Source: Tricharina praecox
Lineage: Eukaryota
Direction of reading: 5' to 3'
Length of the DNA: 64,000 bases
Assembly: GCF_024521635.1 (NCBI RefSeq)
Contig: NW_026250403.1
Span: 2,108,001 to 2,172,000 of the forward strand
A model generated the notes under the pieces. That model was not told the origin of the DNA. It was given only the letters and a program-made list of their open reading frames with translations, and made no database searches. Both the position numbers and the translations under genes were made by a program. Shown one piece after another: positions 20,278-30,096 of this stretch; the first letter of the stretch is position 1; every line of letters begins with the position of its first letter.

Positions 20278-21936
20278 CTAATCCGACCCGAAATCGACAA
20301 CCCAAAAAGCCGCATGCCCATCTGAATTCGCCACCTCGTTCGAGCCTTTAAACACAACCCACCTCTCATCCCTCACCGCGCCTGCCAGCTGCATTCCCAC
20401 CGCCGGAATACGGCAACGGCTCGGTTGCACTTCCATTTGCACTTCCACTTCCATAGCCGCGCCCTGCTCTTCCTCCCCTGCCGGCGGCGGGAGCACCCTC
20501 CGCCTCGCGTACTCAACCGCACCATCGTAGCAGACCGCGTCGATCTGCACTCCCTTCTCGGACGGGGAGAGGACTATGCAATCGCCATGGTGTCCGAACA
20601 GCTGTGTTGCCTGGACGTCTGTCCTTCCGTACGTGATGGCCTCGTGCAGCTCTACAGCGGTGGCGCTAAGGATACGGATCTTCCATGATTTTGCGGCGGA
20701 GTCGTCGATGATCGAGAGCGTGTTGGTCACTGATGAGAAGGCGAAGTGCACCTGCGGTGGGGACGTTGTGGGGGGCTGTAGTGGTATGTTTTGCTGCTGT
20801 TGGTGGATGGGAACGGTGGAGAGGAGTGTGCCTCCCGACGGGATGGAGAAGAGGCGGATATTATCGCACGTTGCCACCGCGAGGATCTCGCTGTTGGGCG
20901 TGATATAGCTAGCTCGGGTACCCCACAGGCGGTACTCGATCCCGCTGAGTACCGTAGTTGCCTCCCCCGTCTTCAGGGAGAGGAGATGGAGAACAATTGT
21001 TCTGCGCGGATGGGCGCCATCCGCGGTCGCCTCCTTGTCGTGCACGATGTATCCGGTGTGGGAATCCGACATGTTCTGCGTGACGGCCGCGTGTGCCGGA
21101 ACCCCGACTTGCCACACAAGGGAAAGATCCGAAAGGTCGTAGAGTCGCATGCTCCACGGGCCGGTGGTGTTGTCACTCTCGTCCGCGTCTCCCGGTCCGG
21201 GGTTGAGCAACACCCGCAAGAACCCGCCACCCACCGACAGATCCTGGACTCTATTCACCCCGACCGTGATCCAGCCCCTGCCCGCCTCACCACCACCCAA
21301 CTTCTGCACCCCAACCCGGTTCTCATCCCGCCCGCACAAGCCCTCATCGAAGACCAACCAGCTATCGGCCGCCACCCAACAGCCCATTCCCACTCCGCCT
21401 TTTACCGTCTCAACCCCACTCACCCTCCTCACCCCCCTCTTCGCAGCAGTCCTAAACCCCTCCACGGCCGCCTCAGGAAACCTCTCCCCATCTCTATGCA
21501 GCGCCCAAACGCACTCCGCCTCTCGCGCAAACGGGAAGTGGTATCTCAGCGCCAGTGTGTAAACATACTCGCTCGCGAGAATAACGCGCCATGCCTTTGA
21601 CACGCGTTGGTGTACGAGCACGTCGAGCGGCCTCAGGTGCGCCACGATCTTTGCCAGCACGTGCAGCGGCAGCAGCGCGAACGGGTCGCGCGTCGTCGAC
21701 GGCCGCGCTTGTGTCGCTTGCAGAAGCCGCGCTGACGAGGCGGTTGTGCCGGAGGAGCGGATGCGTTTGGCCGGGCGCGAGACGGAACTGGGGGAGTGCG
21801 CGGCCGGCTGCGTGTTGTCGGGCGTTGTTAAACCGCGCTTTCGCGTCTTGGGTAAAGACGCCAGGATCGTGCTGGTCGGGACGGCGTCGAGACGCACGAG
21901 GACCCGCGACCACGGGCCGAGCGAGTGGTTGTTCAT
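20278..21936 (-). CDS. F-box domain protein with an unassigned, probably beta-rich C-terminal region
   Basis: Intronless ORF with F-box DPFALLPLHVLAKIVAHLRPLDVLVHQRVSKAWRVIL. TATA-like TATATAA at about 22064-22070 favours the ATG at 21936 over the one at 22029. Confidence 0.8.
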   Translation of the reverse strand: MNNHSLGPWSRVLVRLDAVPTSTILASLPKTRKRGLTTPDNTQPAAHSPSSVSRPAKRIRSSGTTASSARLLQATQARPSTTRDPFALLPLHVLAKIVAHLRPLDVLVHQRVSKAWRVILASEYVYTLALRYHFPFAREAECVWALHRDGERFPEAAVEGFRTAAKRGVRRVSGVETVKGGVGMGCWVAADSWLVFDEGLCGRDENRVGVQKLGGGEAGRGWITVGVNRVQDLSVGGGFLRVLLNPGPGDADESDNTTGPWSMRLYDLSDLSLVWQVGVPAHAAVTQNMSDSHTGYIVHDKEATADGAHPRRTIVLHLLSLKTGEATTVLSGIEYRLWGTRASYITPNSEILAVATCDNIRLFSIPSGGTLLSTVPIHQQQQNIPLQPPTTSPPQVHFAFSSVTNTLSIIDDSAAKSWKIRILSATAVELHEAITYGRTDVQATQLFGHHGDCIVLSPSEKGVQIDAVCYDGAVEYARRRVLPPPAGEEEQGAAMEVEVQMEVQPSRCRIPAVGMQLAGAVRDERWVVFKGSNEVANSDGHAAFWVVDFGSD

Positions 21937-24838: not shown

Positions 24839-27230
24839 GCGAAGTGTTGTCCTGCCATCTAGTACTGGGTACAATATACACGAAGCGCCATCCACATACT
24901 GGTATTCATCTGAAAGATTCCGGTGGGAAAGGACTGAAGATGCACTGAGCAGATTCGCATCCTAGTCAAGCGATCGTGGTAATACCTATCCTGCTGCTGG
25001 CCACTATCGATACCGGCTCCCGGACGATGTCGCGAAGTCACGGGTTGCCAGGTAGACTGTGTAGGTACCTGATCTGAGCGATGGTCCTGTGGAGAGGAAC
25101 TGCGATCTGGCGGGCAAGGGAAGCATTGGTTCCCACTGCCCAGCGTGGGAGAGCGTGTAGTGAAGCTAAGTGAACGGCCCGGGCCGGATCGAAATGTGCG
25201 ATGGCGGGTTCTGTCCGGGTGGGCCGGTGAGAGCCGGTCTCGTGGCGGGGGTCGGGATCGGTCGGTCGGATTGACATCGACGGTTTTTCTTTCTGGCAGG
25301 GGCAGAGTCGCGCTGTCGGACCGAAGACGTTCTCGCGTTTTTGCCGCCAAAGCAACTCGTCGACGTTGTTGCTTTCTGCATCAGCGTCAGCATCAGCATC
25401 AGCTTCCGCGCTTGTTCCAGAACGCTTTTTTTTATGCTGGGGGTGGGGGAGTCCGGGGGGGGGGGTCCATGCTTGAAAGTTGGTGGGAGGAGGAGCCTGG
25501 ACGAAGAGGTGGACATGGACATGGGAGGGATTAGCTTGTGGGTTGGCGCTGGGTGTGACAAGAGGTTGGGCGCGTGTGGAGTTGAACCGTGCTTTGCTGT
25601 GGTTGATGTGCTTGCTGTGCTGCGATGCGATGTATCTTCAAGGATTCGGCAGGAAGTTAGGTATCGAGGGGGGGAGGCAGAGCGAGAGAGTGCGTGCGGT
25701 TTCTACTTCTGCAGCCAGCAGGAGATGGAGATGTGGCAAGGTCTCTCTCTGTCTGCTCGCACTCATTGTTCGCACTCTCTGCCCGCACTCACTGTCTGTC
25801 CGCACTCTCTCTCTGACCGCACACTCTCCTCTCTCTCTCTCTCTCCCGCCTCTGCTCCCCCGGTGACAGCTGGTCCTCCGCCTGACTGCGCTGTGCACGG
25901 GTGTACAGCAAACCGCATCTTCACGTACATACGCACATACTTAAAGGCCGCCGATCACAGCGAGAAAGCCGGCAACAAATTATATTGCCGTGGTGGGAGC
26001 GAGATCACACCGACTACATCATTCTATCTCCACTGCACACTTCACTCTACATAATACCACAAGACTTGCGAACCCACCTACCCCACAAGCACTTGCCGCC
26101 TTCGCTATCGACAACCTTCTCTGGCTGCCGCTGCTTGCTTGAAATACGGTTGCTGGCAAAAAGCAGAAACAAGGATACCACCTGGCCATCGGTGGCTACG
26201 AACTACCCACGACGTAGAGTCCTCTACATACTTTCGGAACCTGAGGGCTGGCGAGAAACGGACGAAGCGACTAAGCCGGCAACGACAATAACGACAACGA
26301 CGACACGACGACAACGACAACAACGACTACGATCACGACAATCCCCCGTCCGGGACGAGACCTGCCGTGCTCGAAACCAATTCTCTTTGTGATCCGACGA
26401 GGGATCGACTTGAATCCGAGTCCCGCCAGCGTGTGCGCAACTTGAGTCTTGCACAGCAGCAGCCGCCGCAGTGGCAAATACAACGAACTAGAGTGCTCTA
26501 CTTACATACCTGTGGGTACCTACCTGCTCCGTCTGCCCTTCTCCGCCTTCTCCGCCTTCGACTGCTCCTCCTCCTGCTGCTGCGACTCCTGCTCCCCCTC
26601 CTTCTCCTTCGCCAGATTGACATCAACACCACTACCTACTGCCACCACCACTGCCACCACCACCACCGACATCCACTCCAGTCTGTCGTTTACCGCCGAA
26701 GAATCTCGCACCGCCACTCTTTACTGACCATCCCACTCGCTTCACATTCAGCTCGCGCACTGTCGACTTTGAAATCTGAACGGCGTCGTCGGTGAGGCTC
26801 CGCGAACGAACGACGTAGTCTCTCATCCCACAATAGAATAGCAAAAGCAAAAAAGCAAAAGCTGTGTACGAAGAAAAAAGAGGAACAGGCATCCCAAGTG
26901 CAGGAAAAGAAAAGCCACTTCTCACGCCCAAGCCTCGATCCCTCACGGTAAGGCAATTAGTCGTTTTCCACCAGAATACCTCCCACCCATCCCTCCTCCC
27001 CTCCGTCCTCGCACTCGTTCATAACTGCTAGTTACGTCTCTGATCTCGCTGTGTCAATTCAAAGACTCTATCTCCCCCGCTATCCCCCTCGCAACTCCAT
27101 ATCCCCCACAAAGATCGCCTCCCGACCCGACGCGTCGTTGCGAACAGACCGTCTGCTGGCCCCCACAACAGACCAGCCCCATCTCCGAACGAACCCGCCA
27201 CTTCGGCGAACACCCCATACAAAAGCCACC

Positions 27231-29178
27231 ATTTTCTCCACCGCAGAACTGGCTCCGTTTCCCTACACGCAGGTCCGTCGAACGAGCCTGGATACCGTTC
27301 CGCCTCTGTCACCGGGAGCAAGCCGACCCCAGAGAAGGAGGGCCTCCGTGCCCCGTTCTCCATCGCGTCCGAAGGCCGCGAGACAGCACGCTGCGGTGGC
27401 GGTGGCGGCGGCGACATCAGCGGCGGCGACATCAGCGACGGTGACGACAGAACCCCCGACGCTACAGTTCACGACGCATTTCGAAGATGGCGACCGGATT
27501 TCGGATGCGACGCTAGGTAACGACAAGTTGGCTACGGCTCCGGATTCTCGTGGTGTTGCCGACCGGGGGTCTCCGGCCTTCCAGGTCATCGTCCTGGTAA
27601 GTTTTCATTTTCGTCGCCCTTTTGTTTTTTTTTGTCGCGTGCGCGCGTCCGGTTGTGTCGAGAGTTCTTTCGATGGTTCCTTGAAAGGAAGAAAGAAAAA
27701 ACACAATCTGTGCGTGCATGCTCTTTATGTAAGTTGGCTCGCAAGGCAGAAACGCAATATCTGACCGTCGACTTTGTTTGGTTCGGGTACATGCAGGGAT
27801 CTGGGGGAGGTCCAACCGAAGGCAACTGTTCTGGCTATCTCCTACGTTCGACGTCAAAACGATGGGCAAAGAACTCGATTCTGGCCGTCGATGCCGGAAC
27901 TCATCTCTCTGGCATCGTAAAAATCCTCGACGACCATGCACCCAACCGGAAAAACCCGGAGGCCTCGCCGTTCGAGGGTGCCCCGCTACCTGGAGCAAGT
28001 TCGAAAGTCAATGCCGCATTCATCACTCGAGAGCTCGTATCGACATATCTCCTCACCCACTCACATCTGGACCACCTCTCCGGCTTCGTGATCAACACAG
28101 CCTCCTTCTCCAACACCGCCCAGCCGAAGCGAGTGGCTGCCCTGCCGCACGTGATCAACGCGTTGAAGACGCACATCTTCAACGACGTCATCTGGCCTAA
28201 TCTGTCGGACGAAGATGCCGGCGTGGGACTCCTCACGTATCAGCGGATGCAGGTGGCGCACACGTATATTCCCGTCTCCGATGGATTGAGTGCGCAGGTG
28301 TGGGCGGTCAGCCATGGCCACTGCATGAAGCTGCACACTCACTGGGGAAGGAAGAGCTCCGCTGGTCTTCCCTGTGATGGAGCTCATAGCGGTCACAATC
28401 ACCAGGCGCGATGGTGCGTGCTCGATTCTGCGGTCTTCTTCGTTCGGGATGACACCTCTGGCCAGGAGGTCATGATGTGGGGTGATGTTGAGCCTGGTTC
28501 GTTTCCGCCCTCTGACCCCACGTGTTCGCGCATCGTCACTAAAAAAATGATCGCCGCTCAGACTCGGTATCCCTGGACCCCCGCAACCTCCGTGTCTGGC
28601 AGGAAGCAGCACGGAAATTCCACGCCGGCTTCCTGAGCACAATCTTCATCGAATGCAGCTACGTCAACTCGCAACCCGACTCACAGCTCTACGGCCACCT
28701 CTCACCGCAGCACCTGATGACGGAACTCAAAGTGCTCGCCGAATTCATCGTCTGGCTACGCAACGGCGGCGACCAACGCAACGACAAGAAGCGCAAGCGG
28801 CTCAGCAACGGCTACTCGAACGACGATCCACTGATCGAAGGCCGGCGGCGGAACAATCCCAATCCGCCCAACACGGTCCGCGAAGAGGACGAAGAGGACG
28901 TTCCCCCGCCGTTCGGAAACCTCCTGCCGGACACGCACATCATGACCGACAATGTGAATCTGGACGTTAATCCGATCGCTGGCTTTCCCGCAGTCAACCC
29001 GTTTGGCGACCTGCGGCCGCTGGAGGGCCTGCAAATCGTCATCACCCATGTTAAGGATACCATGGGCGAGCTCGACGATCCCATGCTCGTCCTGGCGGAC
29101 CTGGAAAAACTCGAGAAGGAGGCGAATCTGGGCTGCACGTTTGTGCTCGCTAGGCAGGGGGGGAGTATATATTTCTAG
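27231..29178 (+). CDS. PDE1: Class II (low-affinity, metallo-beta-lactamase fold) cAMP phosphodiesterase. Exons (start unresolved)-27596, 27797-28496, 28562-29178; the start shown is a candidate non-AUG codon
   Basis: PAFQVIVL|GSGGGPTE, LAVDAGT, signature THSHLDHLSG, HIFNDVIWPNLSDED, SHG, WGDVEP|DS, IFIECSY, LYGHL.P, ITHVKD. Introns 27597-27796 and 28497-28561 are canonical. Confidence 0.9.
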
Positions 29179-30096
29179 TTTCTTGAGTATCTTCAATTGC
29201 TTTCTGGGTGGTTCGTCTGTTTTATTTTTGATTTTGTGGGTCTGAATCTTTGCAGCGGGGATCGGGGATCGGGGATCGGGGATTATTTCGTTTCTTGTTT
29301 TCTTGTTCTACTTGCTTTACACGATTGTTGTAGACCGGTTTGCTTTTTCCGGATTGGATTGGATTGGATTTGTTCGGATTGCTTCGGATGGGAAGGGATG
29401 AAATGGATTGGATGGACTGGGCTGGGATCGGGCTGGATTAACGGAGTTGCGTTCTTTTGCCTACTTTACTTTACTTTACTTACTTTACTTAACTTGATAT
29501 GTGGTTTGCTGGGTTTGGTCAGTGGCCAGTGGTGAGGGTGGGGGTGTTGATAATACCACACTCACTACACTGAAGATTGTACGATATTGTTGTCGAAGGA
29601 AATGGGATGGGGATAATGTTTTGATCCGACGGTGGTGCACATTCGTTTCTCTAGCACAATAGCAACGCTGTGTGTGAACTCATCTATTTTTTCCTTGCGT
29701 GCCTTTTGCATTCACAGTTCCTGATCCGAGACCGAACTGCGTGCTTGCTTGCGTGGTATGTGACATGATGTATCATACCAGTACATATGGTATCTCTGTC
29801 CGTCCCCATCCCCGTCCCCCTCCTGTCGTTGCTAGCCCTCCCGTCGTTGCCATTCCCTTCCCCAACCCGTATGAAAAATATAAAAAAAATATAAGAAAAA
29901 GAAAAAGAAAACTAAAAAGAGCACGAACAATCAATCAATCGAAAAGAATACCGCGCCCAACCTTGAAATGAAGCCCAGAAAAAAATAAAAATTGTAGGAA
30001 ACGAATACTACCCAGAAAAAATAAAAAATCAAAGTTGACACCAAACCGTATACACAAATGCAATCAAGCCTGTCGAAGAGTCTCGAAGAAACAAGT

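Follow-up and report, generated by a model that had tools for sequence, protein, structure and literature searches.

The window analysed here is a stretch of 64,000 nucleotides (nt) of the Tricharina praecox genome (contig NW_026250403.1, positions 2,108,001 to 2,172,000 of the forward strand), and all positions below are those of the window. It carries PDE1, a Pezizomycete gene for a class II (low-affinity, Pde1-type) phosphodiesterase of cyclic adenosine monophosphate (cAMP), for which hydrolysis is predicted. The messenger RNA (mRNA) of this gene has a long leader free of AUG and no in-frame AUG ahead of the metal-binding motif. Synthesis of the protein probably depends wholly on a near-cognate start, at AUU 27231, at CUG 27249 or at both. 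A first-pass annotation of the sequence had proposed a non-AUG start at the ATT; transcript structure, coding constraint and comparison of orthologous loci support non-AUG initiation, and the start codon may be either the proposed ATT or the CUG 18 nt downstream.

The comparative material comes from a metagenome scan that gave 80 loci (L001 to L080), 12 of them of Pezizomycete type (L001 to L012), and from database proteins (P numbers). Assembled RNA contigs are named by their sequencing run (X numbers).

The gene and its transcript

The features of the gene, all on the plus strand, are the following:

25757–26947, plus strand: leader exon 1a, non-coding (X3 record 8; X2 record 2 covers 25872–26947)
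26948–27064, plus strand: leader intron, 117 nt, GT..AG (joint in X2 and X3)
27065–27596, plus strand: exon 1b, with the leader end, the N-terminal extension and the first beta-strand (X3 record 8, X2 record 6, X6 record 14)
27573–27596, plus strand: PAFQVIVL, first beta-strand of the class II phosphodiesterase fold (aligns with residues 3–9 of yeast PDE1, 4ojv)
27597–27796, plus strand: coding intron 1, 200 nt, GTAAGT..CAG (joint in X2, X3 and X6, the last a marine metatranscriptome)
27797–28496, plus strand: exon 2, PDEase_II core (RNA contigs, PF02112)
28058–28075, plus strand: HSHLDH metal motif, codons 210–215, inside exon 2
28497–28561, plus strand: intron 2, 65 nt, GT..AG (joint in all four runs)
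28562–29178, plus strand: coding part of exon 3, stop TAG 29176–29178 (PF02112, RNA contigs)

Exon 2 matches the PF02112 (PDEase_II) profile with an E value of 3.3e-27 (96 bits, profile positions 13–223) and exon 3 with 5.8e-22 (78.7 bits), both exceeding the curated cut-off of 23.7 bits. HxHxDH is the metal-binding motif of the metallo-beta-lactamase-type fold, and the H, H, D and H of HSHLDH are invariant in both alignments (A1 and A2). The PAFQVIVL strand and the start of exon 2, which encodes a G-x-G-G-G-P turn, are joined in RNA and together align to residues 3–17 of 4ojv. The strand is also the earliest ordered element in the AlphaFold model of ortholog P0003, where residues 1–125 lack secondary structure and have a predicted local distance difference test score below 50. 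The best database matches come from Pezizomycetes, namely Sphaerosporella (via P0001/P0121, 69% identity), Wilcoxina (66%) and Pyronema (63%), and then Rhizina, Peziza, Terfezia, Tuber and Morchella.

The transcript, 25757–26947 joined to 27065–27596, 27797–28496 and 28562 to at least 29237, is read from spliced RNA contigs of runs X2 and X3 that match the window. A 3123-nt X3 contig (record 8) spans the four exons from 25757 to 29237 with a single difference from the window, at 28765; a 2252-nt X2 contig (record 6) runs from 27094 through two junctions to 29600 with no difference. The X3 contig begins with a loose end of 24 letters, which we take to be a sequencing-adapter tail, and no PDE1 contig was placed farther upstream than 25757. 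X6 further carries the leader pieces 26612–26851 and 27077–27385. Intron coordinates are the contig joints after a +1 adjustment of the cut, and all three introns are of the GT..AG type.

These data bear on several details of the first-pass annotation. The GTAAGT donor at 27597, the end of the PAFQVIVL exon at 27596 and the in-frame TGA at 26793–26795 are present in the sequence as described. The leader intron, which had been drawn at 26948–27031, occupies 26948–27064 in the RNA contigs; the earlier argument about the reading frame survives the correction, both lengths being multiples of 3.

The leader intron is unspliced in one X2 contig (26918–27092, 175 nt) at a depth of 63.5, the spliced form having a depth of about 282, which suggests that this intron of the 5′ untranslated region is partly retained. 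Simple repeats cut the reads in two regions. In the leader these are CT runs, ACG/ACA triplets and CCA/CCT runs within 25790–25850, 26270–26340 and 26560–26680; in the 3′ region, at 29255–29500, they consist of GGGGATC, GGATT and CTTTA units. Insertions of 1 nt at 26303/26304 in X6 lie within a 41-nt match whose flanks differ from the window and which probably stems from another organism.

The AUG-free leader and the beginning of the coding region

The elements of the leader and of the N-terminal coding region, again on the plus strand, are as follows:

25734–27486, plus strand: ATG-free stretch, 0 ATG against 13.5–13.7 expected
26793–26795, plus strand: in-frame TGA, upstream end of the PDE1 frame; the stop-to-stop open reading frame (ORF) in the spliced mRNA begins at 26796
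27113–27158, plus strand: conserved leader block, a 33-nt identical run in L001/L002 with diverging flanks
27231–27233, plus strand: candidate start AUU in GCCACC-AUU-U, with A at -3 and U at +4
27249–27251, plus strand: candidate start CUG in GAA-CUG-GCU, with G at both -3 and +4
27276–27296, plus strand: RRTS-LDT, a motif of basophilic kinase type (RRPT-LDT in L001, RRRS-LDT in L004, RRRS-LE in P0003)
27333–27353, plus strand: RRRAS-VP motif (SRRAS-AP in L001, HRRAS-GP in L004, LRRSS-GP in P0003)
27487–27516, plus strand: first AUG of the mRNA, +1 frame, opening the 9-codon ORF MATGFRMRR, which includes the second AUG, 27505; stop TAG 27514–27516
27528–27530, plus strand: proximal near-cognate UUG in AAG UUG GCU, 23 codons before the exon end (AAG CTG GCG in L001 and L003)
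27791–27793, plus strand: ATG inside intron 1, 6 nt ahead of its acceptor; with the intron retained it reads MQGSGGG, the start chosen in the Wilcoxina and Terfezia gene models

That no ATG occurs on the plus strand from 25734 to 27486 had been claimed in the first-pass annotation, and a base-level check of the sequence agrees. The gap between successive plus-strand ATGs, 25731 and 27487, is 1756 nt; the runner-up on this strand of the window measures 645 nt, and on the minus strand the maximum is 677 nt. The interval 25757–27486 contains 0 ATG and 26 CAT, with 13.5 ATG expected from a first-order Markov model. Sequences without ATG did not arise in simulations of this interval under the same model (0/1000), and ATG has the lowest ratio of observed to expected counts among the 64 trinucleotides. 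The spliced leader is 1357 nt long up to AUU 27231 and 1375 nt up to CUG 27249.

The frame of PDE1 is closed on its upstream side. TGA 26793 sits in the observed isoform; therefore no AUG farther upstream could read into PDE1. The distal AUG-bearing exon named earlier as a possible way round a non-AUG start is not found in the longest contig, which joins 25757–26947 to 27065–27596 and carries this TGA, so the non-AUG idea stands. A scan for in-frame ATGs created by a GT..AG junction within 25757–27572 gave 0 candidates. On the downstream side, the first in-frame AUG is 28247, at codon 273 and the eighth AUG of the mRNA. It follows HSHLDH, and a protein begun there would thus lack the metal site. 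It is preceded by out-of-frame AUGs, first 27487 and 27505 in the +1 frame and then five others. The earlier positions of ATG 27487, ATG 27505 and the intronic ATG 27791 hold on the sequence. AUG 27487 has A at -3 and G at +4; it is ATA in L001/2, and ATG 27505 is retained in L001 and L003. A 112-codon ORF in the +2 frame (27862–28200) begins at the third AUG of the spliced mRNA and overlaps exon 2; it is presumably a by-product of leaky scanning.

Where coding begins can be judged from the closest loci. L001/L002, with 92% identity to the window in the exon 2 protein and 79% in DNA, align with it from 26975 onward. From 27249 to 27596 the mismatches to L001 number 19, 15 and 43 at codon positions 1, 2 and 3, and the single indel is 3 nt long. 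From 27065 to 27194 the mismatches are 10, 14 and 10, and the indels are 3, 4, 15 and 1 nt; upstream of 27195 the codon bias is absent and indels disrupt the frame. The ratio of nonsynonymous to synonymous substitution rates (dN/dS) over 27231–27527 is 0.177 against L001 (98 codons), with 1.3–1.7 in the other two frames; the extension has 0.188 against L004, and exon 2 has 0.068. The third-position bias, the low dN/dS and the frame-keeping indel argue that the extension is translated in the PDE1 frame and that coding begins between 27195 and 27249. These alignments show the PDE1 frame to be under coding constraint from about 27231 on. The extension of roughly 110 residues postulated in the first-pass annotation is thus borne out in its frame, with purifying selection at a dN/dS of 0.18.

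A search of the extension (27066–27596) against 5.8 billion proteins of the longer lengths gave 0 matches at E <= 0.01 among 5914 candidates, and its homology therefore stands on the direct alignments. Common to the window, L001, L004 and the transcript-derived P0003 are the motifs RR-x-S/T-L-D/E and RR-A/S-S-x-P. Judged by the kinase consensus, these two conserved RRxS motifs are probably phosphosites of the protein kinase A (PKA) type. A mitochondrial presequence was considered, the extension being rich in Arg, Ser and Ala with few acidic residues; its many prolines speak against an amphipathic helix.

The block at 27113–27158 lies ahead of the constrained region. Its frame relative to PDE1 is shifted by a 4-nt indel, and it holds a 10-nt palindrome around ACGCGT. 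It was found in no lineage other than L001/L002, and it might bind a protein or act as a promoter element.

Two near-cognate codons lie at the edge of the constrained region, and their products would differ by six residues. The AAAGCCACC-ATT arrangement, with ATT at 27231, is present as first described, and the 16 nt surrounding this AUU are identical in L001/L002. L004–6 have ATC ATC in the aligned place, and the amino-acid similarity to L004 begins at the Ile of 27231. At the CUG 27249 site, RNN-CTG-GCT is common to L001/2, L004–6 and L011/12, and conservation between L011 and L012 starts at this motif. CTG makes up 15–20% of the exon 2 Leu codons in L004, L011 and L012.

L007–L010 present another arrangement. 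An in-frame TAG is followed by three codons and then by AAG CTG GCG, with about 1 kb free of ATG. The CTG lies 18 codons before the exon end, the distance from stop to exon end being 21 codons, and in exon 2 CTG accounts for 0 of the 15–16 Leu codons.

Orthologous loci and gene models

The first-pass annotation had called for an alignment of orthologous loci in search of a shared lack of AUG, and such a lack is found. Among the full Pezizomycete-type loci (L001, L002 and L004–L011), 0 of 10 carry an ATG in the PDE1 frame anywhere from the closest in-frame stop to the end of the exon. L003 has no in-frame ATG in the 53 codons that it holds. L012 has one 108 codons upstream, within a stretch lacking in-frame conservation with L011. 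As a control, we took 62 loci of other fungal classes from L013–L080, after removal of six whose match began past residue 1. Our search pattern picked out the strand exon in 43 of these and missed it in the remaining 19; each of the 43 has an ATG in frame 11–45 codons before the exon end.

ATG-free stretches at the Pezizomycete-type loci were compared with simulated sequences:

L001: 1187 nt, 7.7 ATG expected, 0/1000 simulations ATG-free
L004: 861 nt, 7.4 ATG expected, 0/1000 simulations ATG-free
L007: 932 nt, 6.5 ATG expected, 0/1000 simulations ATG-free
L008: 1088 nt, 9.3 ATG expected, 0/1000 simulations ATG-free
L009: 1082 nt, 9.5 ATG expected, 0/1000 simulations ATG-free
L011: 402 nt, 4.1 ATG expected, 16/1000 simulations ATG-free
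L012: 359 nt, 3.3 ATG expected, 30/1000 simulations ATG-free

The leader of the window upstream of 26975, exon 1a included, has no detectable similarity to L001 or to the other Pezizomycete-type loci. The absence of AUG, and not the sequence, is thus what has been conserved. L011 (9580–9605) and L012 (7094–7115) share a short upstream ORF (uORF) begun by AUG, M(M)ADAGC-stop, about 190 nt upstream of the candidate CTG; the leader of the window lineage is wholly free of AUG.

Public gene models of Pezizomycetes disagree on the beginning of this protein: three are partial, two begin at the intronic MQGSGGG and two begin far inside the protein. The end of intron 1 (27786–27796) reads TAC-RTG-CAG in most lineages and misleads gene predictors into MQGSGGG starts. 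The leading M of Logan-derived proteins was considered as evidence of an AUG and set aside. The Sphaerosporella protein has V in place of the M of P0001, and P0122 has L in place of that of P0003; being replaced by V or L in longer cluster members, it reflects bacterial-style alternative-start calls and is unusable as AUG evidence.

Mechanism, alternatives and known systems

We propose that ribosomes scanning the AUG-free leader would begin at AUU 27231 and/or CUG 27249 with initiator Met-tRNA. The product would have 554–560 residues, of which residues 1–108 or 1–114 would form a disordered extension rich in Ser, Pro and Arg with the two RRxS motifs. Their PKA-type phosphosites may provide a feedback from cAMP signalling. 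Ribosomes passing the weak starts would be captured by AUG 27487 and yield the 9-residue peptide. Weak starts and this capture would together make PDE1 output low and dependent on the strictness of start-codon selection, and the leader may stay AUG-free because an upstream AUG would pre-empt the weak start. The link of PDE1 to start-codon stringency, which the first-pass annotation also drew, is one that we infer. In the L007–L010 lineage the proximal CUG would be the only possible start, and at UUG 27528, its equivalent in the window, a minor short form may be made.

A number of observations weigh against obligate initiation at these codons or against its generality. Both AUU 27231 and CUG 27249 are weak starts, the former with U at +4, and either may be used, CUG being the more deeply conserved. 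A hairpin of the kind that assists non-AUG initiation from about 15 nt downstream was sought in seven segments (window, L001, L004, L008 and L011), which folded no better than shuffled sequences (z from -0.16 to +1.37). The contigs reveal dominant isoforms, and 25757 is the start of the longest contig, not a mapped mRNA 5′ end. The AUG-free intervals were picked after inspection, and the probabilities obtained for them, 0/1000 to 30/1000, are optimistic. The 12 Pezizomycete-type loci represent about four lineages from one metagenome series and do not count as 12 independent cases. The CTG of L007–L010 fits better with the proximal UUG 27528 than with the distal candidates, and this correspondence is ambiguous. 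The annotated protein of Sphaerosporella brunnea (P0121), whose model retains intron 1, has an M in frame 57 codons ahead of the end of the exon, and P0010 starts with M 133 residues before the motif; given these two, some Pezizomycetes may not share the lack of AUG.

An extension of the proposal to the whole class is accordingly more tentative. All Pezizomycetes may have lost the Pde1-type AUG and keep AUG-free leaders of kilobase length with a near-cognate start alone, so that stringency, set by the balance of the eukaryotic initiation factors eIF1 and eIF5 and by the status of eIF2, would determine cAMP breakdown and PKA signalling, the sites in the extension closing the feedback. We regard this broader form as possible but doubtful.

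It is unlikely that translation starts mainly at the proximal UUG 27528 (CUG in relatives), to give a 461-residue enzyme with the extension untranslated. At this place AAG-YTG-GC is common to L001, L003 and L007–L010 and K-L-A is found in Rhizina, and in L007–L010 the proximal CTG is the sole option. However, such a start leaves unexplained the dN/dS, the third-position bias and the lone 3-nt indel across 27231–27527, as well as the conservation of the RRxS motifs with L004 and P0003. In the window UUG 27528 is probably little used because it lies 12 nt past the stop of the AUG 27487/27505 mini-ORF, which would starve it.

A second transcript that starts in, or retains, intron 27597–27796 could use ATG 27791 (MQGSGGG) and make a protein without the first strand and the extension. 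This ATG has counterparts in L001/2, L004–6 and L011/12 in addition to the Wilcoxina and Terfezia models, and in X7, a soil metatranscriptome, a 170-nt contig (27702–27869) is unspliced across the border of intron 1 and exon 2, which weakly favours such an isoform; it could also be pre-mRNA or DNA. The ATG position reads GTG in L003, Sphaerosporella and Pyronema, however, and L007–L010 have no ATG in its place; L008–L010 have none for about 1 kb upstream, and in L007 the nearest lies 64 nt ahead of exon 2. ATG 27791 itself is in poor context, with T at -3, and three ATGs (27673, 27718 and 27727) come before it inside the intron. The intron is spliced out in contigs of three runs, purifying selection acts on the strand exon and the extension, and the strand that would be lost corresponds to residues 3–9 of the solved yeast enzyme. 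We therefore consider this start, which the first-pass annotation had listed among the outcomes that would refute its idea, decidedly unlikely.

An unseen isoform, in which a further upstream exon is spliced differently and brings an in-frame AUG, is very unlikely. It finds room in the fact that the mRNA 5′ end comes from contigs of dominant forms. The TGA at 26793 and the scan for junction-made ATGs speak against it, the absence of ATG recurs in four lineages, and AUG depletion across the whole leader suits scanning to a weak start.

That an assembly indel displaces ATG 27487/27505 from the frame, or that the gene is decaying, is extremely improbable: support was looked for and none found, the X2 and X3 contigs agree with the window over 27094–27595 without a single difference or gap, the ATG matching 27505 is out of frame in the same way in L001 and L003, ATG 27487 is ATA in L001/2, and the dN/dS of exon 2 does not suit a decaying gene.

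Two further routes to an AUG were tried and rejected. RNA editing is not seen as any base change over 27065–27596 in the X2 and X3 contigs, which drop rare variants; the only in-frame ATA noticed on reading, at 27099, comes before the frame break at 27194 and has not been preserved in L001. For a -1 frameshift from AUG 27487, no slippery heptamer was noticed on reading, this AUG is ATA in L001/2, and the conserved extension would be left untranslated. Elsewhere in the window, upstream of PDE1 and on the minus strand, a 596-residue open frame at 20278–22068 matches the F-box profile PF00646 (E 7e-05).

If confirmed, near-cognate initiation of PDE1 would account for the inconsistent gene models in cup fungi, truffles and morels, which are partial, begun in the intron or truncated past the active-site turn, and it would supply a rule for correcting them. 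The gene would be a natural fungal system for the control of a signalling enzyme by start-codon stringency. It would also illustrate how selection can hold a leader of more than 1 kb AUG-free during sequence drift.

Among known systems close to PDE1 is S. cerevisiae Pde1 (PDB 4ojv/4ojx, PF02112), a member of the same family; an ortholog of the window gene aligns to it in four stretches, among them the first strand and the GxGGGP turn. In yeast Pde1 the AUG stands two residues ahead of that strand, whereas the window gene has no such AUG and an extension of about 110 residues. It likewise differs from the orthologs of other filamentous classes, with their AUG 11–45 codons before the strand end. 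Exclusively non-AUG starts occur in animals in EIF4G2/DAP5 (GUG) and TEAD1 (AUU), where the leader is AUG-free and the whole protein depends on a near-cognate codon; the resemblance to PDE1 is one of mechanism only, as these are unrelated proteins of another kingdom. To our knowledge, genes that depend wholly on a non-AUG start are few, and no cAMP phosphodiesterase gene is known to us among them. A full-text literature search on non-AUG starts in fungal phosphodiesterases or in Pezizomycetes found nothing relevant.

Among fungi, Neurospora crassa cpc-1 offers a parallel. It is described as having conserved in-frame near-cognates (CUG, AUU and ACG) in good context within a long leader, found comparatively (PMC5487733). 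PDE1 and cpc-1 are thus alike in carrying conserved near-cognate codons in a long fungal leader recognized by comparison. However, cpc-1 keeps its main AUG and has optional extensions controlled through uORFs (PMC5487733), whereas the window gene is without a usable AUG or an AUG uORF. For Podospora anserina IDI-4, a start from CUG alone has been proposed, the CUG being conserved in a relative (as cited in PMC5487733). IDI-4 resembles the PDE1 protein as a filamentous ascomycete protein with a proposed non-AUG start; it is a basic leucine zipper (bZIP) transcription factor, whereas PDE1 would be a metabolic and signalling enzyme in which the feature extends across several lineages of one class.

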